Assembly (NCBI GenBank): GCA_903888345.1
Contig: CAISTG010000060.1
Location: 1 to 58,093 of the forward strand
Reading direction: 5' to 3'
Length of the DNA: 58,093 nt
DNA from: Candidatus Buchananbacteria bacterium
GTDB lineage: Bacteria; Patescibacteriota; Patescibacteriia; 2-01-FULL-39-33
Position numbers and translations under genes: made by a program. Shown in pieces: positions 4,686 through 55,632 of this stretch. Position 1 is the first letter of the stretch; each line of letters begins with the position of its first letter. Under the pieces are notes generated by a model. It ran no database searches. It was given only the letters and a program-made list of their open reading frames with translations, and had not been told where the DNA came from.

Positions 4686-4689
4686 AAAT

Positions 4690-8871: not shown

Positions 8872-9552
8872 TTACATGGTAGTTTCCATCATTAATTTAT
8901 TAATGTCCTCGAGTTTTTCGTTACGAGCGACTGTGGGATTATAAGTATTATAAAATAATTCAATTAACGACTGTGTATCGAGCACCTGCGAACGCAAGCC
9001 CATACTCGCCAAGCCACTTAAAATCTTATCCACCACAATAAACAGTTCTTTTTGACGGGAGAGAAAGATTTTTTGGCTGACACTAACTACGCCCGTTGGT
9101 GAAGCCACATCGCCAACCCGCTGCCAGAAACTGCGACCCTTGGACTGAAATGGCTCATATGGCACGATTACATAAAAACGTTTAGTCATAATATTGCCCA
9201 TTTGCACTAGTTCTGTCACATACTGACGATATTCGGTCATTTGAATTTTTAGCAAATCATTAGTCTGATGCGCCTCCGCTTCTTTCAGATAATTCAGATA
9301 TTGTTCTAAATCTAATTGGCGCGATTGAATTAAAATCTGTAATGGTAGATCCAATGAGTTTAAAAAACTAACATAAGCAGAAATAATCGCATTTTGCTCG
9401 TCGTCAGACTTCAGGGCAAAATTAATTGAGGAAACCAAAAGCACAGCCCGTAAGGAGCCATCTTTCATGATCACTACATCATCCTTAATCTCAGCAATCT
9501 GTAAATATTTCTGAGTTGAGGGAGTCGCTTTAGTTGCACTTCGATTTGCCAT
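8872..9552 (-). CDS. VirB4 N-terminal-domain-like protein (separate ORF, in frame with the ATPase ORF)
   Basis: The motif pattern QKYLQIAEIKDDVVIMKDGSLRAVLLVSSINFALKSDDEQNAIISAYVSFLNSLDLPLQILIQSRQLDLEQYL matches my memory of the N-terminus of Tn916 Orf16 / TrsE-type VirB4 proteins. It is separated from the ATPase ORF by one TAA and one codon, in the same frame. Confidence 0.7.
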   Translation of the reverse strand: MANRSATKATPSTQKYLQIAEIKDDVVIMKDGSLRAVLLVSSINFALKSDDEQNAIISAYVSFLNSLDLPLQILIQSRQLDLEQYLNYLKEAEAHQTNDLLKIQMTEYRQYVTELVQMGNIMTKRFYVIVPYEPFQSKGRSFWQRVGDVASPTGVVSVSQKIFLSRQKELFIVVDKILSGLASMGLRSQVLDTQSLIELFYNTYNPTVARNEKLEDINKLMMETTM

Positions 9553-10119: not shown

Positions 10120-11499
10120 TTAAAATCTTAAAGCACGATTCAATTCCATTACCGCATGAAGCTCGTCGATTGATAAAGTTGGCTTACCAGCCAATAACCT
10201 TTCGCGAACTGTTTCTTCCATGTTCTTTCCCTCAGTCATCGCCGATTGACCCAACAAACGATAAAATTTATTAACTTCGTTTTTATGCCAGGCCGTAATG
10301 CCCTCCAAACGCTTGGAGAAACTCTCCTCGCCCAGTAATTCAATTTTTTCTTTAATTTTATTAACAGCGGCATTCGGATCAGCCGCCAAGCGACGAAAAT
10401 CAATCAATGTCATATTTTCTAATTCCTCAATCGGACCCATTAATCGCTTCTCGAATCGCACATCATCCAGATTGGGTTTATTGGCATTTTTTGAATTCAA
10501 AACGGTTTCGGGAATATGCTGACTCGCGACATAAGGCGCGGGACTAGGCGCGGGCAACTTCTCGCTTGCCACTGCCGGCATCGGAGCTTGATTGACACTT
10601 ACCTGCTGCCCTGAAGACTCAGACTCTATCATAATTTTACCATGTTGACCGCTGACGGGCAATGATTTTTCAAAAGTCGGTTCATTTTTTGTGTCAACAA
10701 CTGCCGGCAACGCTTCCGTTAATGTTTGTGGCAAAGCTGCACCAGGGAACTTAATGACCGGTAGCCCATCCTCTTCTTCGATATGGATAGCTGCTGCCGG
10801 ACTTTTTTCTTCTACTTTTATCGTTTCTGGAGCCGTTACTCGCACTGGCCGGGGCAAGGCGGGTCGCCTAGTCTTCGATTCACCAGTATTTAAATCATAA
10901 TTCTTAAGCGCTGTTATAATCACCTCTGCCTGAGTCTCCGAAAATTCCATACCTCCCACCTTATTGCTTTTCATTAAAATTTCCTTCGTTTCCAAGTCAT
11001 CTCGAACCTGTTTCAAACGCGCTATTATAATATTGCGTAAGCGTTTGAATAATACATCATCGGCTAGATTCAAATTTAAACGATTAATAATATTGGCGGC
11101 AATAATCTCATAATCAATAACCGTTGCGGTCGATGCCTGTTGTTTATATTTCTCCACCTCAGCTTCATCTTCACGCGAAAAAGTTAAATGCGAATTATTA
11201 ACGGCAGGACCAGCATCTGCTTTTTCATTAACAGTTTGTCCGATTTTTTCCACTAAAGCGCCGAAACGACTCTTGATCTGTTCCGCTAAAAATTGATTGA
11301 AATCATAAGTCGCTTTCAAATACTCGGTCAGATTAGCGTAATCAATATCGCGCAACAACAGGTCGATCAAGATTGAAGTTGACTTGATACCGAAATTTTC
11401 ATCGAGATTATCTAATTCCGCCAAAATATCAGCCTGAGAAATGCTGTCTCGGACCGCTTCGGATAATTTATTAAGTTTTGCCAGGGAACTATTAGCCAT
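10120..11499 (-). CDS. hypothetical protein, no TM helix, with a central Pro/Ala-rich linker
   Basis: Long ORF tightly packed in the array, 5 nt after the upstream gene. No motif recognised. It has helical N- and C-terminal domains and a P-rich middle (PALPRPVRVTAPE...LPAPSPAPY). Confidence 0.7.
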   Translation of the reverse strand: MANSSLAKLNKLSEAVRDSISQADILAELDNLDENFGIKSTSILIDLLLRDIDYANLTEYLKATYDFNQFLAEQIKSRFGALVEKIGQTVNEKADAGPAVNNSHLTFSREDEAEVEKYKQQASTATVIDYEIIAANIINRLNLNLADDVLFKRLRNIIIARLKQVRDDLETKEILMKSNKVGGMEFSETQAEVIITALKNYDLNTGESKTRRPALPRPVRVTAPETIKVEEKSPAAAIHIEEEDGLPVIKFPGAALPQTLTEALPAVVDTKNEPTFEKSLPVSGQHGKIMIESESSGQQVSVNQAPMPAVASEKLPAPSPAPYVASQHIPETVLNSKNANKPNLDDVRFEKRLMGPIEELENMTLIDFRRLAADPNAAVNKIKEKIELLGEESFSKRLEGITAWHKNEVNKFYRLLGQSAMTEGKNMEETVRERLLAGKPTLSIDELHAVMELNRALRF

Positions 11500-11504
11500 A
11501 ATAT

Positions 11505-12005
11505 TTACTGATTGTTCATTAAAAATTCATCTAACTTTTTTTGCGTTAACCCAATTTCCTCTAACGCCAATCGCTTTTCTAGGGGTGGCATTTTCTGCCA
11601 ATCATATTGTGCGATTTTTTCCTTCAGATCCAAGACTCGTTCTGTGGCCAAGCTTTTAACTGGCTCATTTTCTATTGCCGGCAATACCAAGCCTTCTAAT
11701 CCTAGACTTTTAACAAATTCATCAAATCCAGAGATATACGGTTTTAGCTCGAGGAAGCGATGCGTTAAAATCGCCACCACAATATCGCTGATTGTCGCCG
11801 GATCTTTTTTCAAGGCCGCACTCAAACGCTCCTGAAATCCATCAATTTTATCGGAGCCAATAATAACTCGAGTCATCAAACGAATGACCTCCAAAAATTC
11901 CGCATCCGTCAATTGAAATGACGCCAACCAGGGAGTATCCGACTTAAGATACTCCAGATCATTATCATCATCAACAATTTTATTTTCGTCCTCGTTCATA
12001 GTCAA
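11505..12005 (-). CDS. hypothetical acidic cytoplasmic protein
   Basis: ORF packed 3 nt after the VirB6-like gene. No TM helix and no recognised motif. Confidence 0.7.
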   Translation of the reverse strand: MTMNEDENKIVDDDNDLEYLKSDTPWLASFQLTDAEFLEVIRLMTRVIIGSDKIDGFQERLSAALKKDPATISDIVVAILTHRFLELKPYISGFDEFVKSLGLEGLVLPAIENEPVKSLATERVLDLKEKIAQYDWQKMPPLEKRLALEEIGLTQKKLDEFLMNNQ

Positions 12006-12008: not shown

Positions 12009-15000
12009 TTATAATATATCGCTAAAGAGCTTACTTCTTGATAGCTTATCGCTATCGGTGCTACCCTTAAATTCAATTAGTTTATCAACGATAGCGGTAG
12101 CGACTTTTCTATTCTCAGTACTACCCAAAAATGCTTTTAGCGCCTTAAATGGCATATTCATAGCAATGGCCTCAATATGAAGTTTATTCGCACTCGGATC
12201 ATCTCCGAGGTTAATATTTTTTAAGGTGTCAGCGCTAAATTTTCCTACCGATTTTCTGAATACGTCCTGATTTGCATGATTATTATTTAATTCGATTTCT
12301 GTTCCGGCAGAAGCCATTTGGAACATTAACTCAGTTGCCCGCTTCTCATCACTTTTTCTTATTGTCGGAGTGGACATACCACTAAGCTCCTTTGTTCTAT
12401 TAAAAGCCTTAGATAAACCAAGATTTAACTTTTCCTTGTGATCAACTGACGCTCTGCCCAAGTCTTTAACCTCTTTAGCTGATAAGCTCCCAAGATGATT
12501 CTCAATAAAGTCGTCATCAATATTTTCATGAGAGATATTCTTAAGCACATCCGCTCGTTTGGAACCACTTAGGGCCGCCTTCATGGCCTTCTTTTGTGCT
12601 TCTGATGCAGTACTACCATGTTCCACCGTAGCACCATTTATTAATGCCTGTTCATAAATCTTGGCGTCATCGTTGGCGTTAGCTCCATCGACCAGACTAG
12701 TCAAATCCTTAAAACCATCTTTAACTTTTTTCTTATTTAATTTCTTGTAATCAGTATCTGATAGACCGGCCTTAACAGCTGAACGTAAGAAATCAGCATT
12801 AATATTTTCTTCCGCCAAACTATCAAGAACTTTACTCTTATTCTTGCCGGTTAAGATTTCTTTCATCGCATCGCGACGACCCTCGGTATCGTTTTTAACT
12901 TCGCTATGAGCCAATAATGCATTTTCCATTGTCTTTCTAGCTCGCTCTTTATTTTTGGTCGCCACAGCTAAATCAGGGCTTGATGTACCATCTAAATCAG
13001 CCTCCTGAATATTTGTAGCGATTTTATTAAAGGCTTCCTTCAACTTAGTTTCAAATTCTGAACCACGTTTTTGAATTTGTTCTAATGCATGAGGGTCAAA
13101 CACATGGCCAACATGATCCATTAATTTATCTAATTTGCCTGCCCCAATTTCTGCCGCAATAAACGATTGATTAGCACTAACATAATTATCTCGCTTTTCT
13201 TCTTCGCTAGCACCAAAAATCTTATCGAAACGAAAATCTTTTGCCGAATGGATATAGGCATCGCGCATTTTATCCAATTTTTTCTGCTCATCTTTATATG
13301 CAGTGGTTCCAGCAGCTAAAGTTGATTCAAAATGCGTCGATTTAACTCCACTGACATCATCAGATAACATATCTTTGGCTGCTTTTGACAAGCCCGCCAT
13401 GACCGTGCCAAATTCCTTGTCATCCTTACTATTTTTAACTAAATATTTCATCAAATCATCAGCATTACCACCTCCCAAAGCTTTCAAAGTTACCGCATCA
13501 GCCTCCTTCATTAAATCAGCCAATTTAACCTTGCCATCTTGAATATCGGCAGTCAATTTAGCAACATCAGTGCCCTTACCATAAATACTAGATTTTAACG
13601 CCAAATTTGGATTGGATTTCTTGAGATTATTATCAAAAGTATTCTTCAAGTCCTGAGGCAATTGAGAGCGATAAAAGTCGATTAACTTGGTGTTATTGGC
13701 ACTATTAGCCTCATCATCATCTTTAATCCAGCCATTTTTAAGCAGGGCTTGCGTGGCAGCCATCTTTTGCGCGGTTGAACCACCAATCGAATTGGCTTTG
13801 GCTCGCAATTGCGCTTGACTCATCCGACTCATACCAAAAGCTACAGCTGAAGCATCAATCTTAGCTTGTTCGCGTTTTGAGGTGCCTGATTCTAAGGCGC
13901 CGATCTTACTGCCCAGCGCCACATTAAGTCCAGGCACAAATTTTCCGCCCACTTGATAAGCGGCACCATACAACTTCGAGCGTAAACCTAACTTGTCATC
14001 AACGGCAGTGCCCACAAAAGCCGGAACTTTTTTGGCGATATTTAAGCCGGTAAACTTTTTCATCCAACCCTGGGCATCACCAGCAATTTTGCCAGCACCA
14101 CCAAGCCTGCTACCCATCAGTAGTGAGCCCCATAATAAACCAATAACTACCATCACATTAATCAAACCATTTGGACTGGCCATGTTCGATAGATTGGTTG
14201 AGGAATCTTGTCCACTTTCAGTCAATGTCAAACTAGACACTGCCTTAATATCGGTACCTCCAGCTGCTTCATTACCGACGCCTAAATAGTTACTATTGGT
14301 AGTAGACCCATTATTAGCGCCAAAAGTCGCCATCGCCATAAACGACAGATATAAGAAGAACATCATCACTGGACCAGTAATTAAATATTTCTTAATCTCG
14401 CCTTCCCATTGGCCCGTTATTGAGCCCAACTGGTTAAAAGCTTTACCAAAAATCCACAACGGCGACAAAATAATCAAGAACCAGAACATAATAATGCGAT
14501 AAACCAAGATTCCGGCAATCGCAATGATTACTACTAAGGCAGCAATCGTAACTACAATTGCAAAAATTAAAGCAGCAAAAATATCTACCCAGGCAATTTG
14601 CGGCGTAATTGGATTACCACTACCATCAGTTATTTGGCTAGTAACATTTGTTAATTGCGCTAAACTTGGCAAGCCAAAACTGGCTAAAATTATATTGTAA
14701 CCGGTTAAAGTCGCGAGTGGTGCAGCAAAAGTCAGCATGATTACTTGAGAAGCATCAATCATCAAACCAGTTAACATCTTCGAAAAATTAATCAAAATTG
14801 CAGCAAATAAGACTTTCGGTAGCATGGTGTGCCATTGATAATTTTGTACTTTTAAAGTCGTACCGATTGCCATCGCGATCATCAAAATAATAAAAAAGTT
14901 ATTACAAACGTCGCGCGTAATTGTCCAACCAATAACTACCGGGGCAATATTAACAAAATTATTAAACACCGCCACCATCAACATCACCTTAGTAACCAAC

Positions 15001-15587
15001 ATTAAAATTGTGCCCAAGCCGTAAGCAATTCCATAAAGAACATAAGAGACGGCGAGGCCGAGAAGGTCGAGAAGGCCGGTGGAAGTAGTTTGACTAACTG
15101 CTTTACCAAGCGCATTATTTGATTTATTTTGAGCTTGATTGGTCTGAGCTAGAAGTCCTTTTTGCTTATCGATTTCTTTCTGTAATGCTGCCTTTGCTTC
15201 CTCTGTCATTACATTTTTACCATTGGCTAATTGATTCTCTAATTTAGTTATATTGGCAGTCTGAGTTTGAATACTATTTCCTAACTGCCGAACACTATCA
15301 TCTTGTGTGTCTTGATTGTTATATGAGCCATCCAAATAATGAAGGGGGTTTAAATCAAATTCTGAATATTTAGTTACGACCGCTCCCGCAGTATTTAGAG
15401 TCGCGTTTTTTGCGCCACTAAACGTAAAGCCACTAACTAAGCCATTCCAAAGTGCCTGCGCACTCCAAATACTAGTATTTACTGGTTTCGTTGCCGCTCT
15501 AACAACGCCAGCACCCAACAAAAACGACATAGCAAAAACTGCTAGGAAAATTCCGACCGTTAAAATTTTTCGAGTTTTAAATATCAT
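12009..15587 (-). CDS. VirB6/TrbL-like polytopic membrane protein with a long C-terminal soluble extension
   Basis: Signal peptide (MIFKTRKILTVGIFLAVFAMSFLLGAGVVRA/A), a coiled-coil stretch, and a cluster of about 7-9 hydrophobic helices encoded at ~14100-15085. These are followed by ~650 aa of K/D/A-rich, probably helical sequence. The start is placed at the ATG at 15587, because the longer GTG start at 15647 lies inside a palindromic repeat. Confidence 0.7.
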   Translation of the reverse strand: MIFKTRKILTVGIFLAVFAMSFLLGAGVVRAATKPVNTSIWSAQALWNGLVSGFTFSGAKNATLNTAGAVVTKYSEFDLNPLHYLDGSYNNQDTQDDSVRQLGNSIQTQTANITKLENQLANGKNVMTEEAKAALQKEIDKQKGLLAQTNQAQNKSNNALGKAVSQTTSTGLLDLLGLAVSYVLYGIAYGLGTILMLVTKVMLMVAVFNNFVNIAPVVIGWTITRDVCNNFFIILMIAMAIGTTLKVQNYQWHTMLPKVLFAAILINFSKMLTGLMIDASQVIMLTFAAPLATLTGYNIILASFGLPSLAQLTNVTSQITDGSGNPITPQIAWVDIFAALIFAIVVTIAALVVIIAIAGILVYRIIMFWFLIILSPLWIFGKAFNQLGSITGQWEGEIKKYLITGPVMMFFLYLSFMAMATFGANNGSTTNSNYLGVGNEAAGGTDIKAVSSLTLTESGQDSSTNLSNMASPNGLINVMVVIGLLWGSLLMGSRLGGAGKIAGDAQGWMKKFTGLNIAKKVPAFVGTAVDDKLGLRSKLYGAAYQVGGKFVPGLNVALGSKIGALESGTSKREQAKIDASAVAFGMSRMSQAQLRAKANSIGGSTAQKMAATQALLKNGWIKDDDEANSANNTKLIDFYRSQLPQDLKNTFDNNLKKSNPNLALKSSIYGKGTDVAKLTADIQDGKVKLADLMKEADAVTLKALGGGNADDLMKYLVKNSKDDKEFGTVMAGLSKAAKDMLSDDVSGVKSTHFESTLAAGTTAYKDEQKKLDKMRDAYIHSAKDFRFDKIFGASEEEKRDNYVSANQSFIAAEIGAGKLDKLMDHVGHVFDPHALEQIQKRGSEFETKLKEAFNKIATNIQEADLDGTSSPDLAVATKNKERARKTMENALLAHSEVKNDTEGRRDAMKEILTGKNKSKVLDSLAEENINADFLRSAVKAGLSDTDYKKLNKKKVKDGFKDLTSLVDGANANDDAKIYEQALINGATVEHGSTASEAQKKAMKAALSGSKRADVLKNISHENIDDDFIENHLGSLSAKEVKDLGRASVDHKEKLNLGLSKAFNRTKELSGMSTPTIRKSDEKRATELMFQMASAGTEIELNNNHANQDVFRKSVGKFSADTLKNINLGDDPSANKLHIEAIAMNMPFKALKAFLGSTENRKVATAIVDKLIEFKGSTDSDKLSRSKLFSDIL

Positions 15588-15617
15588 AATTAAATTATTG
15601 ATAGACCACACTTGTTC

Positions 15618-15653
15618 GTCATTGCGAGTCCGCCGTGGCGAACTCACAATGAC
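15618..15653. repeat. palindromic element of the GTCAT...ATGAC family
   Basis: GTCATTGCGAGTccgccgtggcgaACTCACAATGAC lies in the 78-nt gap between the giant gene and the VirB6-like gene. Confidence 0.75.
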
Positions 15654-15665: not shown

Positions 15666-18600
15666 TTATTGAGGACCATTAACGCTAATAAAGTTAACAC
15701 TAGCGGCGGTATTATCCGCATTCCAGTTATCGATCACCTTAACATTTGGTCGCATCTTAAAAACATTAGTTCCATCATTACAGTTTTCACTTACCGCGCC
15801 AGAGCAAGCAGGTAGATTCTTAATCAAACTATAATAACTATAGGAATGATAAAGTGTCAGTGGATTCTTCTGATCCGGGCGATTTAAAAGTGAAACGCCA
15901 GCATAAGAAGTTTTATCACCGTCACCCCAATTTACTTCGAATGACTTCAGTGGTAATTGATTGGCGTCAACATCGACGACAAAGACGAATTTAATGGAAC
16001 CGATATTGCTGACCACTGACGGAGTCGACGACGGACTGATCGGGAATTTCGGGCGAATCTTACAATAAATATTTTCATTGGTGCTGCTGCGATAGCTAAA
16101 ACTCGGATTACGGTCCTCACAATATTCGGTTGGTACCGACCAGAGTCCGCTATCAACTTTTTGATAGCCACTATCTTTATTACTCCAAATCCAATGGCCA
16201 TAACTCTTAGCGAACAATGCCTTCAGATTATCCACGGTGTAAACCTGTCCCATACGCGCTTGATAAGGCGCCGTCGAACCAAAGGGAGTTTCGTAATACA
16301 GGGGTTGCTTGCCGCTCGTGCCCGGTCGAGTATCCCAATTACTAGGATTTTGTGACGTAATTGGCGCCACGACTGAACCATAAGGCTTATAATCAGTCGT
16401 TAAATAATTATAGCCGTTATAGGCATAAATTTTACTGAAAATAGCAGGATAGCCATTACTACTATCACAAAAATAATTTGCTGCGAGTCTCGAGCCGCTG
16501 CCATTTGCTTTATTGACACTGTTTACATTCTGTCCAGAACACAACAATATTCTATTATCATCACCCGGATCAACAACTGCATTGCTATCTGGACAGCCGA
16601 TTAAATTATCACAGTTGCCCTTCCAGTCTTTACCGGCCGAATCCTTACAATTATTGATACTGCTAAGGCAATAAGTTGATTGATAGAAACACTGGGTACC
16701 AGCTATTAAAGAATCGGTCACACAGTCGCTACCTGCCCCCGTATATCCAGAACCAGAAGACAATCGAGCGGCCCAAGCACGATTTTGTCCAGAAGAATTA
16801 ACCACTTGAACAATATCGGTACAATATTCAGGACTAATTTTGGCACTAACATTACCGCCTAACGCCGCTCCTCCTGTTTTATCGCCAAATCCCTGCGCTC
16901 CGCCAATATCCCAATAATGGACAAACCCCAAAACATCACCGGGACGATTCGGATCTGGATCAGTGAACCTACTGGCATACTGTAAATCCTGGTCAGTAAC
17001 AATTTTCATGCCGCCATACATAACAAATAAATGTGCCAAATCACCAACTACCGGTACAGCTTGGGCTAAGCCGCCGATTAAGGAGATGGCCGTTGAGGCC
17101 AGTTTACCGATAAACGACTCTTGAAAACCCATAACCGTATGCCAAGGCAATTCCAAATGAACCACCGCTATTAACCCGGCCACATCAACCATCGTACCGA
17201 CCGAACCCCAACCACCCCATTCGTCGTCTTGATTTAAATTTAGACTTCCAGCAATATCCTTTAATGCAGAAATAATTAAATTTTTAACTGGTTGAATCAC
17301 ATGTTCTTCAACCCAATTCAAGCCCTCCTTTTTATTGGCGCATTGTGGATCTGAATCATCGCAGGTATCATTCGTAGTGGTAACCGTATTAGAGCTCGGC
17401 GCAATCTCTCGATAACACAAGAAACCATTGGCTGGATCAACCCCAAAAATTAACTGAGCCAAACTGGCAATACCAGGACAAACCATCTTGGGATACATGG
17501 TCGCATTTAATACTCCGACAATCGGCTTATGGCTACCGGTAGACCCAATACCAAAGATTCCACCTAAGAAATCAAAACGATAAACAAACGGATAACGAAA
17601 CATCGGCGCCCAAGCATTATCAGGACTAAAAGCTACGGCCTGAATGCTGCCTAGATCACTAAAATTATCAGTAGTATAACCAGAACTCGCTCCTCCCTGA
17701 CCAAATTTTCCTAAATTAGCCATGGCCGTATTCAAATCAATCGGATTAGACTTAGCCTTCGCCAAACAATAATACAACGGATAGCGTTCTTTATAATAAC
17801 CATTAAAATCACTCAGCATTTCCCCCTTAATAGTATCAACTGGCCACCATTGCAAGCATTGTTGAGCGTTACTCGGGTCGTTCAATAAGCAATAGCCGTA
17901 TTGGCCGTAGTAATTCGTGTTGTTATCGTTATAACTGCAAGCTTGCGCATTGGCAGTCGGATAAACGCGGCAAGAACGGTTGACTTCATTATCGGTTCCA
18001 GCGTTTAATACCGGCTTAACTTCAATTTCGTCCCAAGCTGAATAACCACCCAGTTTAGTATTGTCATAATTCTTTTCCGCATCCGGATTCATATTCATTA
18101 AAGCAAAAGACAAATTAACCGATTGATTCAAAACTTTAATACGATATTTTAATTGAGTCCATTGCTGGCCGCTGGCCAATCGCAAGCTATTGTCAAAAAT
18201 CCAGCCACCATTATCATTGGGATCAATGCTCGTAGAACGCGTACCATCAGCGCTTAATAATTCAACAATTCCCGTATTGGTTATCGGGGCACCCTGTAAA
18301 CTGGTGAATTTTAATTGCACTTCGGCGCGCGGCTTATCGCCAGTCCTACCATCGGCCTGACCATTTAGATTTTGAGTATTGACCCACAAGGAAACATAAT
18401 ATGAATTGTTACTATTTAATTCGACTGGCTCAGAAATAACCGCATTACCAGCATTAAGTTTCAAATAGTTACTGCCCTCATGGGCGATATTGCCAAGATT
18501 ACTTAGAGAATAATTATTCGGTATCCAAGTTAATCCGGATTCAGTCGGATCACCAGTACAATTACTGAGATCGGCGCACTTATAATAAGCGCCACTCCAG

Positions 18601-21600
18601 CCAATCGGTTCGGCTGTTCCGTTGTATCCATTTTCAAAATTACCATTGACCACACTACTACTCTCACCATTTTGCTTCATCATGTCATAATACTTCAAGT
18701 TTGCCCCCGCAAAACCAGTTGCTCCCGCAAAGCGCGAAACATTATCAGCCGTGATCATTGTACTCGAAGCGTTGTCGACAAAATCGCCGCATTGGCCATT
18801 ATCATCAACATAATCGCAAGCCTTAACTTGTAAACAGCGATCATTGACTGAAAAGAAAGGGTTATTGTCATTAGCCTGCGCTTTTTCGTAAGTCGTACAG
18901 GTCAGCCAATTACTGCAAGTACGGTTAGGCTTAACCTTCAAAATGGCGTTACTATCACCTTCACTGCCATTAGACAGACTAGGATTAACAGCATTCTGTG
19001 CGCCGCTTAATTGCATATTTAATGCAAAGGTGTCCGGCGCTCGATAAGTCAGATAGTCATAGAAGCGCTTAGCGACTGTCGCACTAGTGTTAGGTAAAAC
19101 CGAATAATCAAGACCATCGCGTTCATTAAAGAGAACACAACCCTTATTGAAATCAACGACACCAGCACACTCAGATTTATTGACTGAATTCTTAGTGGCA
19201 TAATACACACCAGCAATAGTGATCTTGTCGCCACCGGCACGCGTGTCCTCGTTAAAATCAAAGACATGACCATTTTTGGTAGCAAGATTATAGAAACAAT
19301 CGGTTTTATTTGGTTCATTAATATAGAAATACGATCCTGACACCTTGCCGCCCAATAAAGCGAAGGTCTGGCCATCAACTGTCTCGCTGGTTAACGGTTG
19401 GGAAGCGCAACTACCAGCGATTGGCGTGAAATTCAAACCACCAACAACACTATAACTATAGAGAGTATTGGCTTTCAGTTTAACTTTAGAGCAACTCGAG
19501 GTAGCCTGACCATTAACTTGGCAAGCGCTCGACAAGACCTGATTAGTATAGATATAAGGTAGCGGATCAACATATTCGCTACAACCACTCTGGGCAGTCG
19601 GACAAGTTCCGGCCCAACCATCATAGCTCGGATTAATCGCCATCGTCACATTATCCACTGGTCCCACTGGCTGACTCTTTTTGACGGCCGGCTCGTAACC
19701 AGTGCCCAGAGTCAAATTAGTAGTCGTCGCACACTTTTCTTCGGTACCAGAAACATACCAACCCTCAGCCAAAGTGGCATTCGGACGACCGTAAGCACAA
19801 ACTTTACCATGTGGATCCTTAAAGTAAGTCGTGGAATCATTAGTAGTATATTGTTCACACCATTGCTCCTCGTGCTTACACATCGAAGTATCGTAAGTAT
19901 CGGGATCATTTTTTAAAAATAGTGTCGAATAGCCCAGGGTCTGATCCCAGCGATCAATTAGCGGCAAGCCAACTGCCGTACAACCCTTAGCTGAAGCCTG
20001 ACAAGAGAACTCGGCGCGATTAACCATATAGACAGTTTCGTCGGCCGGCACCGTGACCACGTCAGCATCATAACCATTGACATCCGTTCCTGCATTAACT
20101 GTCGTCGCCTCCGGCGCTTCGCTATTGTGGGTATCAACTAATGCCTCACAACCAACGGCTTCCTCGCGACACAACGAAGAGAAAGATCTTAAATACCAAG
20201 GATTCTTAAAACGGTCAGAATAGGCTTGGCAACCAACCATCTCACCGATCGAGCAACGCCCGGAAGAAGAATCTTGGCAAGTACCAGAGGCAATCGCTTT
20301 TTTGCCATCAGCATCATCCATTCGATTATCACAAGAAATTGGAGTGTACCAAGAATTATCAATCAAATAAACCTTATTGCTAATTTCTTTGAGAATTACA
20401 TTATCTAAATAAATCTTTTGACCGCCCAAATTGAAAACCAAATACTCATCCACGGCTGGATCCCAAGAAACAAAAACTGGACCCAACTCATAATAACGCC
20501 AATTGTTCGTGATTTGCACACGACCACCTAGCAAATTATCACCCACAACACGCGAATAAGTGAAATAATCACTGGCTGGAGCGTCACTGAATTTAATGCT
20601 ACTAGCGTAATAAGACTGATCACCTTTCGCCCAGAAACTTAAGATGTAGGTTTTATTTTTGGTTAAAGTAACCTTTCTCTGGATATTATCGGAGGCCAAG
20701 GCATTAGACAAGGAATTACCGCCCGGGAAAGTGGCTTCGGTCGAAATCTTTAAGCCAGTCTTACCAAGCGGATTACGCATATCAAACCAAGCATCATCCG
20801 TGCTCGTACCGGCCGCAAAATCCTGCACATCAATCACATTTCTAACGTTATTGCCTTGATTACCCGTATAAGCGCGGCAACCCTTAGCCGCTGCCGAACA
20901 AGAACGCGCCTCAGTCGAAATCGACATATAGACACACTCACTATTCTTATTAAAATAACCATGAGACTCAATACAATCAGCTTGCGCTTGTGCTACTGTC
21001 GCCTGAGTTTGAGTGCGACGATAAGGATGGCAGTCAGCCGCCACAGTAACGGTTTTTGACAGTAAGCGATAGGCAATATTACCATTAACATCATACAGCT
21101 CGCGACAATCCGGGTTAGTAATCATCTGATCTTGTGAACAGATGGCGGCACTACTGGCATCATCACAATAATTCTGACCCGCTTTGACATTACTACTGTC
21201 GAAATATTTCAAATTAGTACAAGCGGCCGTACTAATATTAGATTTCTTAAGGGTATAGGATTTTAATTGATAACCAGTCGTGTCTGATCCTTCCCAAGTA
21301 TAATAGGCGGCATCATCAGCAGCCGGTTTTTGGCAAGCCCGCAACTCCGAAAAATATTCTTTAACTTCGGCGCCTTGACCAATGACATCTAAGTTGGTGA
21401 ACTCATCACAACCAGCATCCGCGGCAGAGCAATATTTTACTTTTGAGTCGGCAATAAATTGCTTGAAAGTAGAAGTAGCAAAGTAAGTGCTTTCTTGTTT
21501 AAAGACTTGATAGCCAACACACTCTGAACCACATAAATCCAAATTATCAACCACGCCCGGCACCAAAGGATCACCACTCGCCGGAGTATAAGCTTCGCAA

Positions 21601-24600
21601 CCAACCTCTTTTTTGGTACAAACTCCAGAATAAGTTGAGCACATTTCATTTCGATTCTGCAAAACGCTAGTTAACTCTGAAATCGTTTCTGGCCACTTAC
21701 CGCCCAAGGTTTTATAGCAATTGAAATAATCCGGGGCTTTCTTCAAATAGGAAACTTGATTAGCTAAACGCAAACTCGGATCATAAGCGCTATAGGCTGT
21801 GCCACTTAAATTACTTAAAGAAACTTTTTCCAACTTAAAGCTATCAACATTCACCGAGCCATTAACACCGCCAACAGTAAATTTCAAAACCTTGCCGCCC
21901 GCCGGAATTTTAAACCAGCAGGAAACACGTTCCAGGTCCGCGCTACTAGGCGCCGCATTTAAATTCAAACTATTAACGCCGCTCGCGACACAATTAGTGT
22001 CACTAGCAGCAATCGCTAAGTGATTATCACTAGAGGCCTCAGTAACAAAATATAAGTTCAAATTAGTTTGGGCTGCCACATTAGCGTCCGCTCGAGCGAC
22101 ATCATAAGCCAAATTATAATAATCGTTACTATCAACCGCGACCGATTTATTGAACAAACTAGCCGCTGGAATGGTTGCCCCGCCAGTAGCGTTAGCAATC
22201 CAAGCGGAATTCCAACCAGTCAAACCATGTTCAAAACCACCATTATAAATCAAATTGCCACCAGTATTAGCTTTATTACGCAAGAATAAGGAACAGCCAT
22301 CATCTTGAGCGCTGCAAGTGGCTGCATCACGATCTAGATATAAATTAGAGCTATTAGTTTTATTAGGCGCATTAACCGTGCCAGTAAACAACATAATACT
22401 GACCGAGTTCTGACAGGCGGCAGTCATTTTTTGAATTCTAAAATCGTCAAAATATACGTCCGCAATCGAAGCGGCGACAGTCGTAATAGCAATTGTGCTA
22501 GTCGAATGTCCTTTGCTGGAAAATTGTAAAACGTATTCTTTCCAATCACCTAAACTGCCGGCCAAGGTGTAACTAATACCCGCCAAATCATCGCTACCCG
22601 AGAGCACATTAATCTTCAGTAAGCCAGCCGTCACCGAACCCTTAGCCCAGAATTTTAATGAATAGTTGGCATTATTTTTATCCAAGGGAACATTTTCTAA
22701 TTTAGTCACCAATTCAACCGGATTATTGGAAGCAACTGTATGTAAAGACGCATTGCCGCTATGTTTTTGATCGGTAGCGCGATAAGCGCGATTACTTAAG
22801 TTAAAGTAAGCCAATTCATCAGACCAATATCTCGCATCACCGGCGGTCGCTGATTCTTCGAAACCATTATTAAAGCCTGTCCCGCCAATAACATTCCCCT
22901 GTTCATAACAAGCTTCCACCAAACAAGAAACAGCGCTCGGAGCCGTAGTACAGGTATTGCCACTCTTATTGAAGTTACAGGTCTTAGTGCTCGCCTCCCA
23001 GTTGCATTTGCTGTCTACCCCGGAACAGAGCTCTGGCGTACAAGTCTGAGTAATTTTTAACCGATTATTAACGCTGGCATTATGATATTGCTTCACTTTC
23101 CAACTCGCATCACCGCCAACCGTCAAAACTTGCGCGCCACTACTAAGAGCGTAAAGTTGTAAATCCTTGGCTTCGTTTAAAAACTCTCCATTCCAAATCG
23201 CTCCGGCCAAATTAAAATTAGTCGTCAAGGCTTGGCAGCCAACATTTAAATTAGAGCAATTAGAAAAATCAAGTGAGTTCTTTAAGAGCGAACCAGCAGT
23301 GCCACTACGACCACTATAAGTTTGACAGGTGTTATAAGCGGCTTGGCAACTATTGCCGACGTCCCATAAGGCGCGCTCTTCTGAGCAATAACCATAGGCC
23401 TTACAATTACCTTTACTATCGTCAGCCAAACATTGCTGCTCGTCGGCACAATAAGTATCGCGAGCAATATCACCCGTTTGATTATTGCCCGCTGAATTAT
23501 GGGCGCCAAAACCCTCGCGGCGGCAAAAAGCTTCATAAACTTTCAAGAGCCAATTAGGATTAACTAAACCCTTAAAAGCATCGGTATTACAATTATTGAT
23601 TCCCTGCCCATAATAACAATTCATCACTTCACCTAAGGTCCAACGCTTAGCGCTAACGCCAGCAGTTGTGGTCACTTCATTGTTATGGATTTTATTAGCG
23701 GCGATTTCCCAACCCACCGGAACAATGCGGTATTTTCTTAAAATTAAAATGCTGCGATAAGGAATTTCTGTTTCTAAGCTGTTGGTCTGACTAATAATCG
23801 GCGCGAAAGCGCGACCTAAAATATTGGTGCCATTAGAATCGCTCGGCAAATCTTTGACGTAAGTCATTTTCTTAATCTGCTCCGAAAACGAATTATCAAT
23901 AACACAGTCAGTAACATTAGGATTTAATTTAGCGCTATCAGAACAGCTGGCCAATTTCAATAAGACATCGTATTTATTACCAACCTTTTCTTTACTCGTA
24001 ATTAAATTCGCGAACTTATTTTCGGCTCCCGCGGCACCGGAAACGACCGGCGAGGAATTATAATTAAATAAATTAACCAAGGTATCAACGGCATCAGAAG
24101 CATTCAGTCCGAGCGGATTAGAATTAGCACCGGTACTACCTCCCGAATTAGTTGAAGCAAACAAACCAGTTTGCAAGCCGCTCAATAATTGCGACACCAA
24201 AGTATTGCCAAATTCTTCCACCATATCAGCAGCCGTATTAGTGAAAGTTGATAATCCCAATGTGGTGTTACTGTCGGCAGTTTTGTCACGAAAAGTATTG
24301 GCAACCACAGTGCCCGGCGTTAAGATTTTGCCAGCCACATTAGTAATATCCTTCCACAATCCAGTAGTTTCCGCTTTTTTGGTAGCGACATTAACCGCAT
24401 CACCCACATAAGAATTACGCTCATCAGCCATTTGGATCATAAAAGAAATGTCATTGGCTCCTGGTCGCATAGCATTACGATAATCAACGGCAAAGGAAGC
24501 GCTACTAATCGCACCTTCCCAATTGGTCATGATTTTTGAAAAACTACAAGAGGTACTTTTTTGAACTTGCTTATAATTAAGCGCCGTCTGAATCATGAGC

Positions 24601-25211
24601 TTCACCCGGAAATCTGGCTGACATAAATTGACGCCATATTGAGTGCCAATACCATCGATAAACTGTCCTAAAGCCGAGTCCGCTGTATTTTGTAAATAGG
24701 CGCCCCAACCCTCAGTAATAAACAATGGCTGCTGGCCCTTGCCACCGGATGCTACCCAGACGGCTGTGTCATGGGCTACTTGGCGGGAAAAAGTTTTTAA
24801 AGCTGATTTAAACGCAAACGCCAAAACTTCGCGTGCTTTGTCTTTGGTTTTAGCTTCGGCAATCAAAGCCAGTACTTGTTTTTTTTGGGCATCATCAGTG
24901 GCATCCTTAGTACATTGCGCTCCCGCTACTCCAATAGCATCATCATGTTCTTTACAATTCAAAGTAACGCCAGCCGGCAAACAGGGCACCGCTTTAGCAA
25001 TATTAAGCATCACCTGACACTTCCCAATCGTACCACCGTCATAGAGTGCTGGCGATTCCACCGCGATCGAATTGATCGAACTAATGGCATCTGCGCCCGC
25101 TCGAGCTGATGGCGCAAAAAATAAATTGCCGCCAACAAATAGCAGAAAGAAAATCACTAAGACCTTTGCGAACTTTTTGTTTTTAGGATTGCTAAAAACT
25201 ACTGGGATCAT
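15666..25211 (-). CDS. giant (3181 aa) secreted cysteine-rich surface protein with CBM-like jelly-roll modules and a C-terminal PKD-like domain
   Basis: Uninterrupted 9.5-kb ORF with a signal peptide (KVLVIFFLLFVGGNLFFAPSARA/G). It has many Cys residues in recurring x-GC-x-x-[YFL] contexts. Three N-G-x-F-E-x-G...W motifs typical of CBM4/9-like sugar-binding modules lie at ~22818-22876, ~22206-22245 and ~18592-18650. The WGDGD motif of a PKD-like domain lies at ~15901-15941. Confidence 0.85.
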   Translation of the reverse strand: MIPVVFSNPKNKKFAKVLVIFFLLFVGGNLFFAPSARAGADAISSINSIAVESPALYDGGTIGKCQVMLNIAKAVPCLPAGVTLNCKEHDDAIGVAGAQCTKDATDDAQKKQVLALIAEAKTKDKAREVLAFAFKSALKTFSRQVAHDTAVWVASGGKGQQPLFITEGWGAYLQNTADSALGQFIDGIGTQYGVNLCQPDFRVKLMIQTALNYKQVQKSTSCSFSKIMTNWEGAISSASFAVDYRNAMRPGANDISFMIQMADERNSYVGDAVNVATKKAETTGLWKDITNVAGKILTPGTVVANTFRDKTADSNTTLGLSTFTNTAADMVEEFGNTLVSQLLSGLQTGLFASTNSGGSTGANSNPLGLNASDAVDTLVNLFNYNSSPVVSGAAGAENKFANLITSKEKVGNKYDVLLKLASCSDSAKLNPNVTDCVIDNSFSEQIKKMTYVKDLPSDSNGTNILGRAFAPIISQTNSLETEIPYRSILILRKYRIVPVGWEIAANKIHNNEVTTTAGVSAKRWTLGEVMNCYYGQGINNCNTDAFKGLVNPNWLLKVYEAFCRREGFGAHNSAGNNQTGDIARDTYCADEQQCLADDSKGNCKAYGYCSEERALWDVGNSCQAAYNTCQTYSGRSGTAGSLLKNSLDFSNCSNLNVGCQALTTNFNLAGAIWNGEFLNEAKDLQLYALSSGAQVLTVGGDASWKVKQYHNASVNNRLKITQTCTPELCSGVDSKCNWEASTKTCNFNKSGNTCTTAPSAVSCLVEACYEQGNVIGGTGFNNGFEESATAGDARYWSDELAYFNLSNRAYRATDQKHSGNASLHTVASNNPVELVTKLENVPLDKNNANYSLKFWAKGSVTAGLLKINVLSGSDDLAGISYTLAGSLGDWKEYVLQFSSKGHSTSTIAITTVAASIADVYFDDFRIQKMTAACQNSVSIMLFTGTVNAPNKTNSSNLYLDRDAATCSAQDDGCSLFLRNKANTGGNLIYNGGFEHGLTGWNSAWIANATGGATIPAASLFNKSVAVDSNDYYNLAYDVARADANVAAQTNLNLYFVTEASSDNHLAIAASDTNCVASGVNSLNLNAAPSSADLERVSCWFKIPAGGKVLKFTVGGVNGSVNVDSFKLEKVSLSNLSGTAYSAYDPSLRLANQVSYLKKAPDYFNCYKTLGGKWPETISELTSVLQNRNEMCSTYSGVCTKKEVGCEAYTPASGDPLVPGVVDNLDLCGSECVGYQVFKQESTYFATSTFKQFIADSKVKYCSAADAGCDEFTNLDVIGQGAEVKEYFSELRACQKPAADDAAYYTWEGSDTTGYQLKSYTLKKSNISTAACTNLKYFDSSNVKAGQNYCDDASSAAICSQDQMITNPDCRELYDVNGNIAYRLLSKTVTVAADCHPYRRTQTQATVAQAQADCIESHGYFNKNSECVYMSISTEARSCSAAAKGCRAYTGNQGNNVRNVIDVQDFAAGTSTDDAWFDMRNPLGKTGLKISTEATFPGGNSLSNALASDNIQRKVTLTKNKTYILSFWAKGDQSYYASSIKFSDAPASDYFTYSRVVGDNLLGGRVQITNNWRYYELGPVFVSWDPAVDEYLVFNLGGQKIYLDNVILKEISNKVYLIDNSWYTPISCDNRMDDADGKKAIASGTCQDSSSGRCSIGEMVGCQAYSDRFKNPWYLRSFSSLCREEAVGCEALVDTHNSEAPEATTVNAGTDVNGYDADVVTVPADETVYMVNRAEFSCQASAKGCTAVGLPLIDRWDQTLGYSTLFLKNDPDTYDTSMCKHEEQWCEQYTTNDSTTYFKDPHGKVCAYGRPNATLAEGWYVSGTEEKCATTTNLTLGTGYEPAVKKSQPVGPVDNVTMAINPSYDGWAGTCPTAQSGCSEYVDPLPYIYTNQVLSSACQVNGQATSSCSKVKLKANTLYSYSVVGGLNFTPIAGSCASQPLTSETVDGQTFALLGGKVSGSYFYINEPNKTDCFYNLATKNGHVFDFNEDTRAGGDKITIAGVYYATKNSVNKSECAGVVDFNKGCVLFNERDGLDYSVLPNTSATVAKRFYDYLTYRAPDTFALNMQLSGAQNAVNPSLSNGSEGDSNAILKVKPNRTCSNWLTCTTYEKAQANDNNPFFSVNDRCLQVKACDYVDDNGQCGDFVDNASSTMITADNVSRFAGATGFAGANLKYYDMMKQNGESSSVVNGNFENGYNGTAEPIGWSGAYYKCADLSNCTGDPTESGLTWIPNNYSLSNLGNIAHEGSNYLKLNAGNAVISEPVELNSNNSYYVSLWVNTQNLNGQADGRTGDKPRAEVQLKFTSLQGAPITNTGIVELLSADGTRSTSIDPNDNGGWIFDNSLRLASGQQWTQLKYRIKVLNQSVNLSFALMNMNPDAEKNYDNTKLGGYSAWDEIEVKPVLNAGTDNEVNRSCRVYPTANAQACSYNDNNTNYYGQYGYCLLNDPSNAQQCLQWWPVDTIKGEMLSDFNGYYKERYPLYYCLAKAKSNPIDLNTAMANLGKFGQGGASSGYTTDNFSDLGSIQAVAFSPDNAWAPMFRYPFVYRFDFLGGIFGIGSTGSHKPIVGVLNATMYPKMVCPGIASLAQLIFGVDPANGFLCYREIAPSSNTVTTTNDTCDDSDPQCANKKEGLNWVEEHVIQPVKNLIISALKDIAGSLNLNQDDEWGGWGSVGTMVDVAGLIAVVHLELPWHTVMGFQESFIGKLASTAISLIGGLAQAVPVVGDLAHLFVMYGGMKIVTDQDLQYASRFTDPDPNRPGDVLGFVHYWDIGGAQGFGDKTGGAALGGNVSAKISPEYCTDIVQVVNSSGQNRAWAARLSSGSGYTGAGSDCVTDSLIAGTQCFYQSTYCLSSINNCKDSAGKDWKGNCDNLIGCPDSNAVVDPGDDNRILLCSGQNVNSVNKANGSGSRLAANYFCDSSNGYPAIFSKIYAYNGYNYLTTDYKPYGSVVAPITSQNPSNWDTRPGTSGKQPLYYETPFGSTAPYQARMGQVYTVDNLKALFAKSYGHWIWSNKDSGYQKVDSGLWSVPTEYCEDRNPSFSYRSSTNENIYCKIRPKFPISPSSTPSVVSNIGSIKFVFVVDVDANQLPLKSFEVNWGDGDKTSYAGVSLLNRPDQKNPLTLYHSYSYYSLIKNLPACSGAVSENCNDGTNVFKMRPNVKVIDNWNADNTAASVNFISVNGPQ

Positions 25212-25219: not shown

Positions 25220-26170
25220 TTATTGATTGTTTAATTTAGCTTGAAGTTGGGCAATAAAATTTATCTTTAACTGCTCATCAGTCACTGAAGCCAAAACTGA
25301 GGCGTCAGCACCGAGATTAGTAATCATTAACTGGCGAATTTGCGCGCCAGTTAGATTCTGTAAATCAGCAGCGCTTTTAATATTTAAAGCCTTTAAATCC
25401 AGACTCGTAGAGGTAGAATTAATCGTCTTAACAACTGCAGTTGAGGTGGCCGTAACCGCCTTAACCTTTAATCCTTGTAATCCACTAAAGTCATAGCCCT
25501 GACTAGTTAAGGTTTGTACAACATCGGGATTATCGTTCAAATAAGTCGAAAATTCTGTCATAATTTCAGCGTCTGATAATGCACTCACTTCGGTATCGGT
25601 CAAACCAGTTTGCTTCATCATTTCTCTAATAACAGCAGGGGTAATAACTGGCGCCGACGCCGTTATAGCACTGCCAGTCAAACTTGGAGCCGCATAAGTC
25701 GAGGTGCCAGTATCCGCACCGGCCGAAAAACAAACTTGCCCCTCAGGACAATTGGGATCAGTGCCACGCTTGACCTCATCGCCATCGCTAATGCCATCAC
25801 TGTCAGAATCGGCAATATAAGGACTTGTGTTGTATTGGTTGACTTCCAAATAATCAGTTAAGCCATCCTGGTCAGTATCAATAGTTTGTTGAGCTAATAA
25901 CGCTTGTTGCTGCAATTCTGTTGCCGCTGCCTGGTCTTTAGCAGCCTTAGCCAAAATCGTTGAAAACGGATTAGTTAAATTAAAATAAAAGACCAATAAG
26001 CCAAAAAGCATGGACCCCAGGCCCACGACGATAACTAAAATTGATCTGAATTTTTCTTGGCGACGCAACATTTCAGACTGAGCCGACCGATTACCATCGG
26101 CCAATTCCGACTCTACGCCATTAACGCCAGAAAAATTATTCCAACCACTGTTTTTTTCTTCACCTTCCAT
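25220..26170 (-). CDS. membrane-anchored protein with thrombospondin-type-3-like Ca-binding repeats
   Basis: Cytoplasmic N-terminus and a TM helix (ILVIVVGLGSMLFGLLVFYF), then DTDQDGLTDYLE and DSDSDGISDGDEVKRGTDP repeats (~25750-25880) and a T/S/A-rich C-terminal domain. This is the first gene of the array, ending 8 nt before the giant gene. Confidence 0.75.
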   Translation of the reverse strand: MEGEEKNSGWNNFSGVNGVESELADGNRSAQSEMLRRQEKFRSILVIVVGLGSMLFGLLVFYFNLTNPFSTILAKAAKDQAAATELQQQALLAQQTIDTDQDGLTDYLEVNQYNTSPYIADSDSDGISDGDEVKRGTDPNCPEGQVCFSAGADTGTSTYAAPSLTGSAITASAPVITPAVIREMMKQTGLTDTEVSALSDAEIMTEFSTYLNDNPDVVQTLTSQGYDFSGLQGLKVKAVTATSTAVVKTINSTSTSLDLKALNIKSAADLQNLTGAQIRQLMITNLGADASVLASVTDEQLKINFIAQLQAKLNNQ

Positions 26171-42979: not shown

Positions 42980-43033
42980 ATGATAAGTCTAAAGTTTAAA
43001 GTTAAAAGTGTTTAAAGTGGACAAAGAAGAAGT

Positions 43034-55626: not shown

Positions 55627-55632
55627 TAGATT

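Follow-up and report, generated by a model that had tools for sequence, protein, structure and literature searches.

A large part of bacterial diversity belongs to the Patescibacteria, which live on other cells. By which part do they recognise these cells, and does their type IV secretion system (T4SS), whose role has been described as 'completely unknown' (PMC11665869) and is likewise called unknown elsewhere (PMC12857230), take part in the contact? The question is raised by a stretch of 58,093 nt from Candidatus Buchananbacteria bacterium (assembly GCA_903888345.1, contig CAISTG010000060.1, hereafter the window), in which one gene of 9.5 kb, encoding a protein of 3181 residues (hereafter the giant), lies next to genes of a T4SS. 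A sequence-only reading of this DNA had suggested that the giant is the extracellular business end of the apparatus, which its gene neighbourhood makes a reasonable proposal. The interpretation that we favour, with a probability of roughly 55%, is that the giant is the ~340-kDa extracellular host-contact (adhesin or recognition) arm of a chromosomal, monoderm-type (MPF-FATA-like) T4SS in a patescibacterium of the ABY1 class (Buchananbacteria-like). It is probably a T4SS-associated surface adhesin, built of three conserved modules without an assigned family and of known lectin folds.

Where does the gene stand? Its immediate neighbours, from upstream to downstream, are as follows.

25220..26170, minus strand: TSP3-repeat protein of 316 aa, single-pass membrane protein (Pfam TSP3_bac, E 1e-8, Ca-binding repeats; transmembrane segment at aa ~43-65)
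15666..25211, minus strand: giant gene, ATG start, 3181 codons and a stop, no internal stop (from the listing of open reading frames, ORFs, and their translation)
12009..15647, minus strand: VirB6/TrbL-like polytopic protein of 1212 aa (transmembrane region at aa ~190-510, hydrophilic tail of ~700 aa)

The TSP3 gene stops 8 nt before the ATG of the giant, and the VirB6-like gene starts 18 nt past its stop, which confirms that the giant is encoded directly upstream of the VirB6-like gene. The VirB6-like protein of the window has no Pfam match, and the label is reasonable because two of six orthologues match TrbL/VirB6 (best E 5.8e-5). This arrangement extends well beyond the window: in a sample of 87 loci, counting those with enough flanking DNA, a TSP3-like gene lies directly upstream of the giant in 72/72, and a VirB6-like gene downstream in 52/57. 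The giant clusters with VirB4, VirB3/PrgI and VirB6-like genes in the window, and also in three of the sampled loci (L001, L085 and L086). The tail of the VirB6-like protein (window 12009-14090) is rich in Lys, Glu and Asp and varies in length among orthologues of 879-1212 aa; such a long-tailed protein corresponds to the 'extended VirB6' of Rickettsiales and of S. epibionticum (SEML1_0013).

How widespread is the giant itself? A word-indexed search returned 129 matches at E<=1e-3, and the best 120 of these are 1843-4084 aa long, mostly 2.5-4 thousand residues. Within the same 120, all matches with a named organism are Patescibacteria (Buchananbacteria, Falkowbacteria or Parcubacteria), and annotations read either hypothetical or merely 'carbohydrate binding domain-containing'. 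The top two (P0001 and P0002) share 51% identity with the giant over 99% of its length, and more than 100 further homologues of 2.5-4.1 thousand residues, from unrelated assemblies, are collinear with it. Assembly chimerism is effectively excluded, because many independent assemblies hold collinear full-length homologues. An exhaustive phmmer search with the N-terminal domain (N-domain query, aa 140-660) found at least 1162 clusters at 50% identity, 583 of them at E<=1e-30, and at least 539 genomes among the GTDB species representatives carry the family, the closest among the matches listed being Ca. Buchananbacteria. In all of the best 150 of the 1162 matches this domain occupies residues ~1-730 of the protein, and within these 150 it was not found outside giant proteins or their fragments: most are proteins of 2.3-3.9 thousand residues, and the shorter ones resemble contig-end fragments. 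In one public fragment of 894 aa (P0121), the stretch that corresponds to aa 140-660 of the giant shows 100% identity; the same organism, or one nearly identical to it, has thus been assembled elsewhere, there with a truncated gene. No paper on the family was found in the literature, one search strand having been poorly targeted.

The architecture of the giant was mapped from a 120-sequence MAFFT alignment and two AlphaFold models, one of aa 36-1215 (mean predicted local distance difference test, pLDDT, 62.6) and one of aa 1990-3181 (mean pLDDT 60.0, predicted template-modelling score, pTM, 0.63). JR1 to JR4 denote jelly rolls.

25098..25211, minus strand: Sec signal peptide, aa 1-38 (hydropathy peak; predicted cleavage between ARA and GA)
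aa 39-139: variable helical stretch
23547..24794, minus strand: conserved N-domain, aa 140-555 (motifs AHDTAVWVASGGKGQQPLFITEGWGAYL and ILRKYRIVPVGWEIAA; present in 120/120 homologues)
23130..23546, minus strand: Cys-rich linker 1, aa 556-694 (YCADEQQC...YGYC...; first C-x6-C hairpins 622/629 and 652/659)
22407..23129, minus strand: JR1, aa ~695-935 (starts NNGFEES; variable insertion)
directly before JR2: hairpin C966/C973
21777..22289, minus strand: JR2, aa ~975-1145 (starts NGGFEHGLTGW)
20850..21776, minus strand: conserved core A, aa 1146-1454 (hairpins 1198/1205, 1261/1268 and 1438/1445)
20367..20849, minus strand: JR3, aa ~1455-1615 (best Pfam CBM_4_9 stretch at aa 1510-1575)
19512..20366, minus strand: conserved core B, aa 1616-1900 (hairpins 1681/1688, 1737/1744, 1778/1785 and 1870/1877)
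aa 1901-1995: variable stretch
18678..19226, minus strand: conserved core C, aa 1996-2178 (C2015-x9-C2025 hairpin; Cys cluster 2099-2141)
17985..18677, minus strand: JR4, aa ~2179-2409 (starts NGNFENGYNGTAEPIGW)
17712..17984, minus strand: conserved core D, aa 2410-2500 (RSCRVYP...YGYCL...CLQWWPVD)
aa 2501-2940: variable C-terminal region, holding the hydrophobic block and a query-specific Cys-rich insert
17007..17219, minus strand: Gly/Ala/Val-rich hydrophobic block, aa 2665-2735 (between conserved WGGWG and GMKIVTDQD)
16032..16391, minus strand: conserved C-terminal domain segment, aa 2941-3060 (pLDDT 68-86; motifs QPL..E.P and LK.LFA.SYG.W)
15669..16031, minus strand: C-terminal beta-sandwich, aa 3061-3181 (PKD-like W-G-D-G...H-x-Y...DNW motif)

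The sequence features described in the sequence-only reading were all found at the positions given there, the gene being on the minus strand, and both the uninterrupted 9.5-kb ORF of 3181 codons and the Sec signal that opens it were borne out. The N-terminus, MIPVVFSNPKNKKFAKVLVIFFLLFVGGNLFFAPSARA followed by GA, is a textbook Sec/signal peptidase I signal, with a basic n-region and a 16-residue hydrophobic core (Kyte-Doolittle 19-residue mean 2.25); by the -3/-1 rule, cleavage is predicted at A-R-A before G, and nearly every full-length homologue has a comparable signal with a site of the AXA type. The giant has no LPXTG motif, lipobox or C-terminal transmembrane segment: its C-terminus (...NFISVNGPQ) lacks a sortase anchor of the type LPXTG, transmembrane segment and charged tail, and shows no hydrophobic peak past aa 2730.

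The N-domain, with a mean identity of 32% over 119 homologues and the motifs SGGKGQ.PLFITEGWG and ILRKYRIVPVGWE, finds no match in Pfam, NCBIfam or PHROGs, nor, by way of the family profile, among all PDB sequences. AlphaFold, with an alignment of 26 sequences, models it as mostly helical at low confidence (pLDDT <50 for aa ~150-410), and confidence is also low for core C. For both models, what Foldseek matches are jelly-roll proteins, namely carbohydrate-binding modules (CBMs), Eph ligand-binding domains, MAM domains, Cry/Vip3 toxins and phage tail fibres.

What holds such a protein together? Cysteine makes up 3.1% of the giant (98 residues), and 57 of the 98 are conserved at >=80%. Eleven short 'GC-x-x-aromatic' contexts had been noted before; all are present, and they turn out to be half of a larger C-x6-C-x2-[YFL] arrangement within a recurrent unit, [IV]-Y-[LFM]-x(5-9)-C-x6-C-x2-[YFL], except that in two of the eleven, MVGCQAYSD and NKGCVLFNE, the spacing to the first Cys is x7 and x9. 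The giant contains 15 C-x6-C pairs, against a mean of 2.9 and a maximum of 9 in 2000 shuffles, and 8 occurrences of the stricter C-x5-[GW]-C-x2-[YFL], against 0.05 expected. Nine canonical pairs (652/659, 966/973, 1198/1205, 1261/1268, 1438/1445, 1681/1688, 1737/1744, 1778/1785 and 1870/1877) are 97-100% conserved across 119 homologues, as are the linker 1 cysteines 563-659, and those of core D (2414-2482) are conserved at 98-100%; homologues carry 9-31 C-x6-C pairs each, with a median of 14. Family sub-profiles of the modules align with one another in hhalign over 17-32 columns at 50-96% probability, the best case being 1261/1268 with 1438/1445 (96%, E 4e-9), and the module matches no family in Pfam, NCBIfam or PHROGs. 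The shuffles, the conservation, the profile alignments and the lack of a database match uphold the earlier description of a degenerate, disulfide-type repeat without a named family. The copies are not periodic: they follow one another at 314, 232, 63, 177, 243, 56, 41 and 92 residues. Three of them stand shortly ahead of a jelly roll, 652/659 before JR1, 966/973 before JR2 and 1438/1445 before JR3. As 966/973, the sole copy within a modelled region, is predicted by AlphaFold as strand-loop-strand, the module is most simply read as a disulfide-closed beta-hairpin, the disulfide itself being predicted. The Cys modules would be hairpin staples of ~20-30 aa, placed before, between and after domains.

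Besides the Cys modules, the giant holds jelly rolls. The N-G-x-F-E motif occurs at aa 781, 990 and 2189, three times against 0.06 expected by shuffling, and had been taken as the start of three CBM4/9-type jelly rolls. That these motifs open jelly rolls is upheld by Pfam, by the PDB profile search and by AlphaFold superposition, and the count is corrected to four, the one overlooked being JR3. The whole protein matches Pfam CBM_4_9 (PF02018) at 36.3 bits (gathering cut-off 25.9, E 8e-9), and single jelly rolls all score below threshold: JR3 at 23.5 bits (E 7.7e-5, the best match of the four), JR1 at 19.1 (E 1.7e-3, profile positions 6-129 of 136) and JR2 at 12.8, through its start motif only, JR4 alone giving no Pfam match. 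Against PDB, the family profile matches the hyaluronate-lyase CBM 4d0q (E 1.8e-8), the laminarinase CBM4 1gui in the region of JR3 (E 2.6e-5) and, with JR2, CBM4/22 modules of several xylanases. JR1, JR2 and JR4 are modelled with pLDDT values of 80-94, 75-89 and 75-88. In Foldseek searches, JR1 and JR2 together match the tandem CBM22 of Xyn10C (4xup, E 2e-12) and also CBM16 (template-modelling score, TM, 0.72-0.77, 22-23% identity), and JR4 matches a porphyran CBM (8xmz, TM 0.73), CBM16 (TM 0.64-0.68) and CBM4-2. The hhalign profiles make homology clear among JR1, JR3 and JR4 (JR1 with JR3 96.8%, JR1 with JR4 96.7%), and JR2 aligns more weakly with the others (50-68%); JR3 is, by its profile matches, a predicted CBM4/9-type jelly roll. 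No catalytic family was found in the giant by Pfam, NCBIfam and PDB searches.

These domains are the least conserved segments of the protein, with mean identities of 11, 15, 29 and 17% for JR1 to JR4, against 32-41% for the N-domain and the cores (41% for core A over 119 homologues), and JR1, with an alignment occupancy of 0.34-0.44, is present in under half of the family. According to precomputed Pfam assignments, relatives carry extra modules (Dockerin_1, VWA, fn3, Laminin_G_3, Toxin_R_bind_N and sialidase lectin), which shows modular swapping at variable positions. Eight homologues (P0016, P0066, P0076, P0080, P0097, P0107, P0114 and P0117) carry added modules, among them MopE-like copper-binding, Laminin_G_3, clostridial toxin receptor-binding lectin, sialidase lectin, dockerin, fn3 and vWA domains. 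Such a pattern is what exchangeable recognition modules set on a fixed scaffold should produce.

At the other end, FEVNWGDGDKTSY lies at aa 3091 within a C-terminal family consensus, VD..QLPL..Y.[IV]DWGDG.....SG..L..R.N..NPF.LYH.YDY ... DNW, which reads NWGDG...LYHSY in the query. The earlier proposal of a PKD-like end has the conserved W-G-D-G...H-x-Y motif on its side; Pfam PKD models gave no match at E<=1 for aa 2740-3181, nor for the C-termini of the query and nine homologues (10 C-termini, 0 matches). A Foldseek match to a PKD domain is weak (1wgo, SorCS2 PKD, rank 30, E 3e-3, TM 0.48, 18% identity, pLDDT 55-82). The end of the protein is a putative Ig-like beta-sandwich with a PKD-like motif, the resemblance to PKD being at motif level only.

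How could these parts work together? On the interpretation of the giant as a host-contact arm, the protein would be exported by Sec and its signal removed by signal peptidase I; about ten conserved C-x6-C hairpins, with other invariant cysteines, would then form disulfides that rigidify the conserved scaffold. The invariant N-domain and/or the conserved C-terminal domains would hold the giant at the cell surface, and the synteny suggests that it may dock non-covalently onto the products of the two flanking genes, the VirB6-like channel protein and the membrane protein with TSP3 repeats. The four CBM4/9/16/22-type jelly rolls are the fast-evolving parts, gained and lost within the family, with dockerin, vWA, FN3, LamG and toxin-lectin modules added or swapped in relatives; they may bind glycans or other polymers of the host envelope and so position the T4SS channel.

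Several observations weigh against this interpretation. Outside the CBMs, searches of Pfam, NCBIfam, PHROGs and PDB sequences link the giant to no named T4SS component or adhesin, and the N-domain model is of low confidence over aa ~150-410, as given above. Export through a Sec signal needs no T4SS, and the docking step would follow from gene order alone. Folds of the CBM type can also bind proteins or act as spacers; Cry/Vip3 toxins and Eph receptors are examples. In three of the eight loci with enough flank (L003, L004 and L087), PrgI and VirB4 are not found within 10 kb, and L087 is even without a VirB6-like gene.

Could the giant then be a surface adhesin or an envelope scaffold that acts independently of the T4SS, its synteny reflecting an ancient, vertically inherited, origin-proximal LeuRS-MFS-KsgA-TSP3-giant block? 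Such an explanation is possible, if rather unlikely. KsgA and LeuRS lie upstream and are conserved in most loci, and the use of Sec and the three loci lacking nearby VirB4 and PrgI speak in its favour, as do the parAB and ribosomal genes within the window: parA/parB (42083-43846) and the translation genes IF3, L20, S6, SSB, S18, EF-P and SmpB (53208-57914) are in line with the origin-proximal position that has been reported for T4SS loci in Patescibacteria. The coupling to a VirB6-like gene in 52/57 loci, with a gap of 18 nt in the window, is however tighter than housekeeping synteny explains, and the N-domain, among the best 150 of its 1162 matches, always belongs to giant proteins.

A proposal slightly more doubtful still would keep the giant within the apparatus and give it a larger part, as a core extracellular subunit of an ABY1/Parcubacteria-type T4SS that replaces the VirB2/VirB5 pilus of Saccharibacteria. 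The N-domain would sit on the VirB6-like platform with the TSP3 protein, the disulfide-stapled scaffold would make a rigid arm of a few tens of nm that passes through the wall or surface layer (S-layer), and swappable lectins would select the host, the whole positioning or forming a conduit for DNA or nutrients taken from it. The idea of such a conduit fits the neighbouring comF, dprA, recG and radA genes, listed here with the rest of the operon and with genes of other loci.

10120..12005, minus strand: two soluble proteins of 166 aa and 459 aa
9570-10001, minus strand: PrgI/VirB3 (Pfam, E 9e-8)
8872-9552, minus strand: TrsD/TraC-like protein (Pfam)
6943-8868, minus strand: VirB4 ATPase (TraG P-loop, E 2e-31)
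6341-6907, minus strand: TcpC-like protein (Pfam)
5662-6363, minus strand: ComF-like protein (Pfam)
window 696-2018, radA; 2619-4751, recG; 33902-34993, dprA; 35001-37190, topA
L086 736-1419; L087 3771-4460 and 2751-3770: DsbA/thioredoxin-like and T4SS_pilin-SLT fusion genes

Since consensus matches to promoters and terminators stand at chance level (49 vs 43 expected; 16 vs 17.6), the operon structure is drawn from the gaps between the minus-strand genes only, which measure 3-35 nt, save one gap of 118 nt and one overlap of 23 nt. The order PrgI-TrsD-VirB4-TcpC-ComF recurs in L001/L002 (Falkowbacteria), L085 and L086, and PrgI lies at the edge of L012. VirB4 function is split between a TraC/TrsD-like protein of 226 aa, which corresponds to the N-terminal VirB4-like part, and an ATPase of 641 aa that follows it; the TrsD arrangement is the most abundant T4SS component in Patescibacteria (PMC12102498). 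Neither the 166-aa nor the 459-aa protein belongs to a Pfam family, and the latter has a Pro-rich central linker. Relatives have one soluble protein of ~450-520 aa between the VirB6-like gene and PrgI, where the window has two ORFs; tblastn finds matches to each of the two in L001, L085 and others.

ComF is the last operon gene in four loci, and transformation and recombination genes surround the T4SS operon. The comF, recG, radA and dprA neighbours hint that the apparatus may serve DNA uptake; T4SS loci of the ABY1 class typically include comF, recG and radA (PMC12102498), and the window fits. The longest recG ORF (GTG start at 4751) shares its 5' end with a predicted tRNA-Arg (4690-4765), so that the true recG start is probably further downstream. 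In L086 and L087, DsbA/thioredoxin-like genes are found a few kb upstream of the giant and may relate to oxidative folding of this Cys-rich protein, and L087 also has a nearby T4SS_pilin-SLT fusion gene; no DsbA-like gene was found among the scanned ORFs of the window. A pilin array is likewise missing from the window, its small tandem ORFs being S6, SSB, S18, EF-P, L20, IF3 and SmpB. Elsewhere in the window, a 308-aa AAA+/AAA_lid_9 protein on the minus strand (39188-40114) is followed directly by a 595-aa ORF without Pfam match (37341-39128), and the pair may be a split or divergent Clp/Hsp100-type chaperone.

Might the giant instead open the wall? As CBMs are normally appended to catalytic domains, it could be a CBM-targeted envelope-degrading enzyme, whose N-domain or another core is a novel glycan or peptidoglycan hydrolase supplying a VirB1-like wall-opening activity. 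A Pfam scan found no VirB1-like, SLT or CHAP gene in the operon, VirB1 homologues are rarely near virB4 and other glycosidases may substitute for them (PMC12102498), and the predicted largely helical N-domain has invariant acidic residues (D590 and E612) besides further ones conserved at >=90%. This is nevertheless improbable: neither sequence nor profile searches of Pfam, NCBIfam, PHROGs and PDB matched a hydrolase family, the N-domain gave no confident fold, and the invariant residues, mostly Cys, Gly or Trp, look structural rather than catalytic.

The hydrophobic block had been put forward as a membrane-inserting or fusogenic element, which would make of the giant an effector that attacks the host membrane, a Cry/Vip3-like combination of lectin and pore-former. 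Its two stretches at hydropathy 1.6-1.7 with glycine-zipper-like spacing, and the presence of Cry1A and Vip3 among the Foldseek matches, are what such an effector could call upon, and it is very improbable all the same. The best 19-residue windows reach only 1.57-1.68, a borderline hydropathy, with D, E and H inside the block; the Cry/Vip3 matches are limited to the jelly-roll domains of these toxins (TM 0.1-0.18). The flanks, D-x-WGGWG and G-[MV]-K-[IV]-[IV]-T-D-x-D...DP.P..GD[IV], are conserved in the ~40 closest homologues, whereas the interior varies by indels of 10-40 residues, the query version being the longest. Comparable hydropathy peaks occur in about half of these ~40 homologues and rarely beyond, more distant members, which form most of the family, have no counterpart of the block, and AlphaFold models it as a hairpin and two helices (pLDDT 50-70) inside a compact globular C-terminal assembly. 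A borderline, indel-rich and clade-specific segment within a globular domain does not support membrane insertion, and the block may have a clade-specific role. It has no Pfam match; an embedded VirB2-type pilin was considered and rejected, as neither T4SS_pilin nor TrbC matched even at E<=10.

An S-layer or purely structural wall protein, which would suit a large secreted protein rich in beta-sandwich domains and a family universal within its clade, is just as improbable, as a Cys content of 3%, with pairs that are invariant, and lectin modules that are hypervariable are atypical of S-layer proteins and the giant is tightly coupled to the VirB6-like gene.

Read as a host-contact arm, the giant gives its family a wider meaning: at least ~1000 clusters of secreted proteins of ~3000 residues, locked between VirB6-like and TSP3 membrane-protein genes, offer a concrete candidate for host recognition and for the extracellular part of the T4SS in classes without pilin arrays. 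Three modules without an assigned family, the N-domain, the C-x6-C hairpin and the C-terminal domain, could become new models.

To which known systems can the giant be compared? With CBM4/9/16/22 modules its four domains share the beta-jelly-roll fold, the N-G-x-F-E...W start motif being found in three of the four, but the giant is without a glycoside-hydrolase domain and its CBMs are embedded in a Cys-stapled scaffold. TraN of F-like plasmids is a Cys-rich, Sec-exported T4SS accessory protein that recognises a surface structure of the partner cell; this outer-membrane protein of diderms, of ~600 aa, serves mating-pair stabilisation. TraN is not known to be homologous to the giant or to carry lectin modules.

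In S. epibionticum, the one species tested, the T4SS locus is essential (PMC10633639, PMC11665869) and carries a pilin array, SEML1_0014-0019, whose pilins proved essential in transposon sequencing (Tn-seq; PMC10633639). These pilins and, on the interpretation favoured here, the giant are both extracellular, sequence-variable parts of the same Patescibacteria T4SS lineage, whereas the S. epibionticum locus has no gene near 3000 aa (PMC10633639 and its supplement) and the window has no pilin array; as a hypothesis only, the giant may be an alternative extracellular solution to pilin arrays. The giant genes of Omnitrophota (bioRxiv 10.1101/2023.11.21.568195) and Giant1-5 of Apilactobacillus (PMC12863079) likewise concern secreted proteins of several thousand residues with beta-sandwich or lectin domains and a link to cell-cell interaction. 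Those are long tandem-repeat arrays, in contrast to the fixed, collinear and non-repetitive protein described here, with its unique N- and C-terminal domains, invariant Cys pairs and coupling to a VirB6-like gene.

PrgB (aggregation substance), PrgA and PrgC of pCF10 and TraO of pIP501 are, as is proposed for the giant, Sec-exported surface proteins whose genes belong to the operon of an MPF-FATA-type T4SS, with a presumed role in cell-cell contact (PMC12102498). The giant differs from these adhesins in having no sequence or domain homology to them and no LPXTG sortase anchor, in being 2-3 times larger, and in being chromosomal and vertically inherited where theirs are carried by plasmids; a survey of Patescibacteria T4SSs detected no PrgB-like adhesin and does not mention the giant gene (PMC12102498). 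VirB5 is also a signal-peptide protein encoded immediately upstream of a VirB6-type gene, and the N-terminal part of the giant is predicted to be helical; VirB5 mounts on VirB6 and acts as a tip adhesin (PMC9259494, PMC12857230). Against this likeness, the giant is ~15 times larger, has no hidden Markov model or PDB-sequence match to VirB5 and has a low-confidence N-domain model, and VirB5 is not found in Gram-positive-type systems (PMC12857230, FEMS review). Homology to PrgB-type adhesins or to VirB5 was tested and not found, and the likeness would be one of function: the closest analogues of the giant appear to be the surface adhesins of Gram-positive conjugation systems and, by gene order and signal peptide, the arrangement of VirB5 on VirB6.

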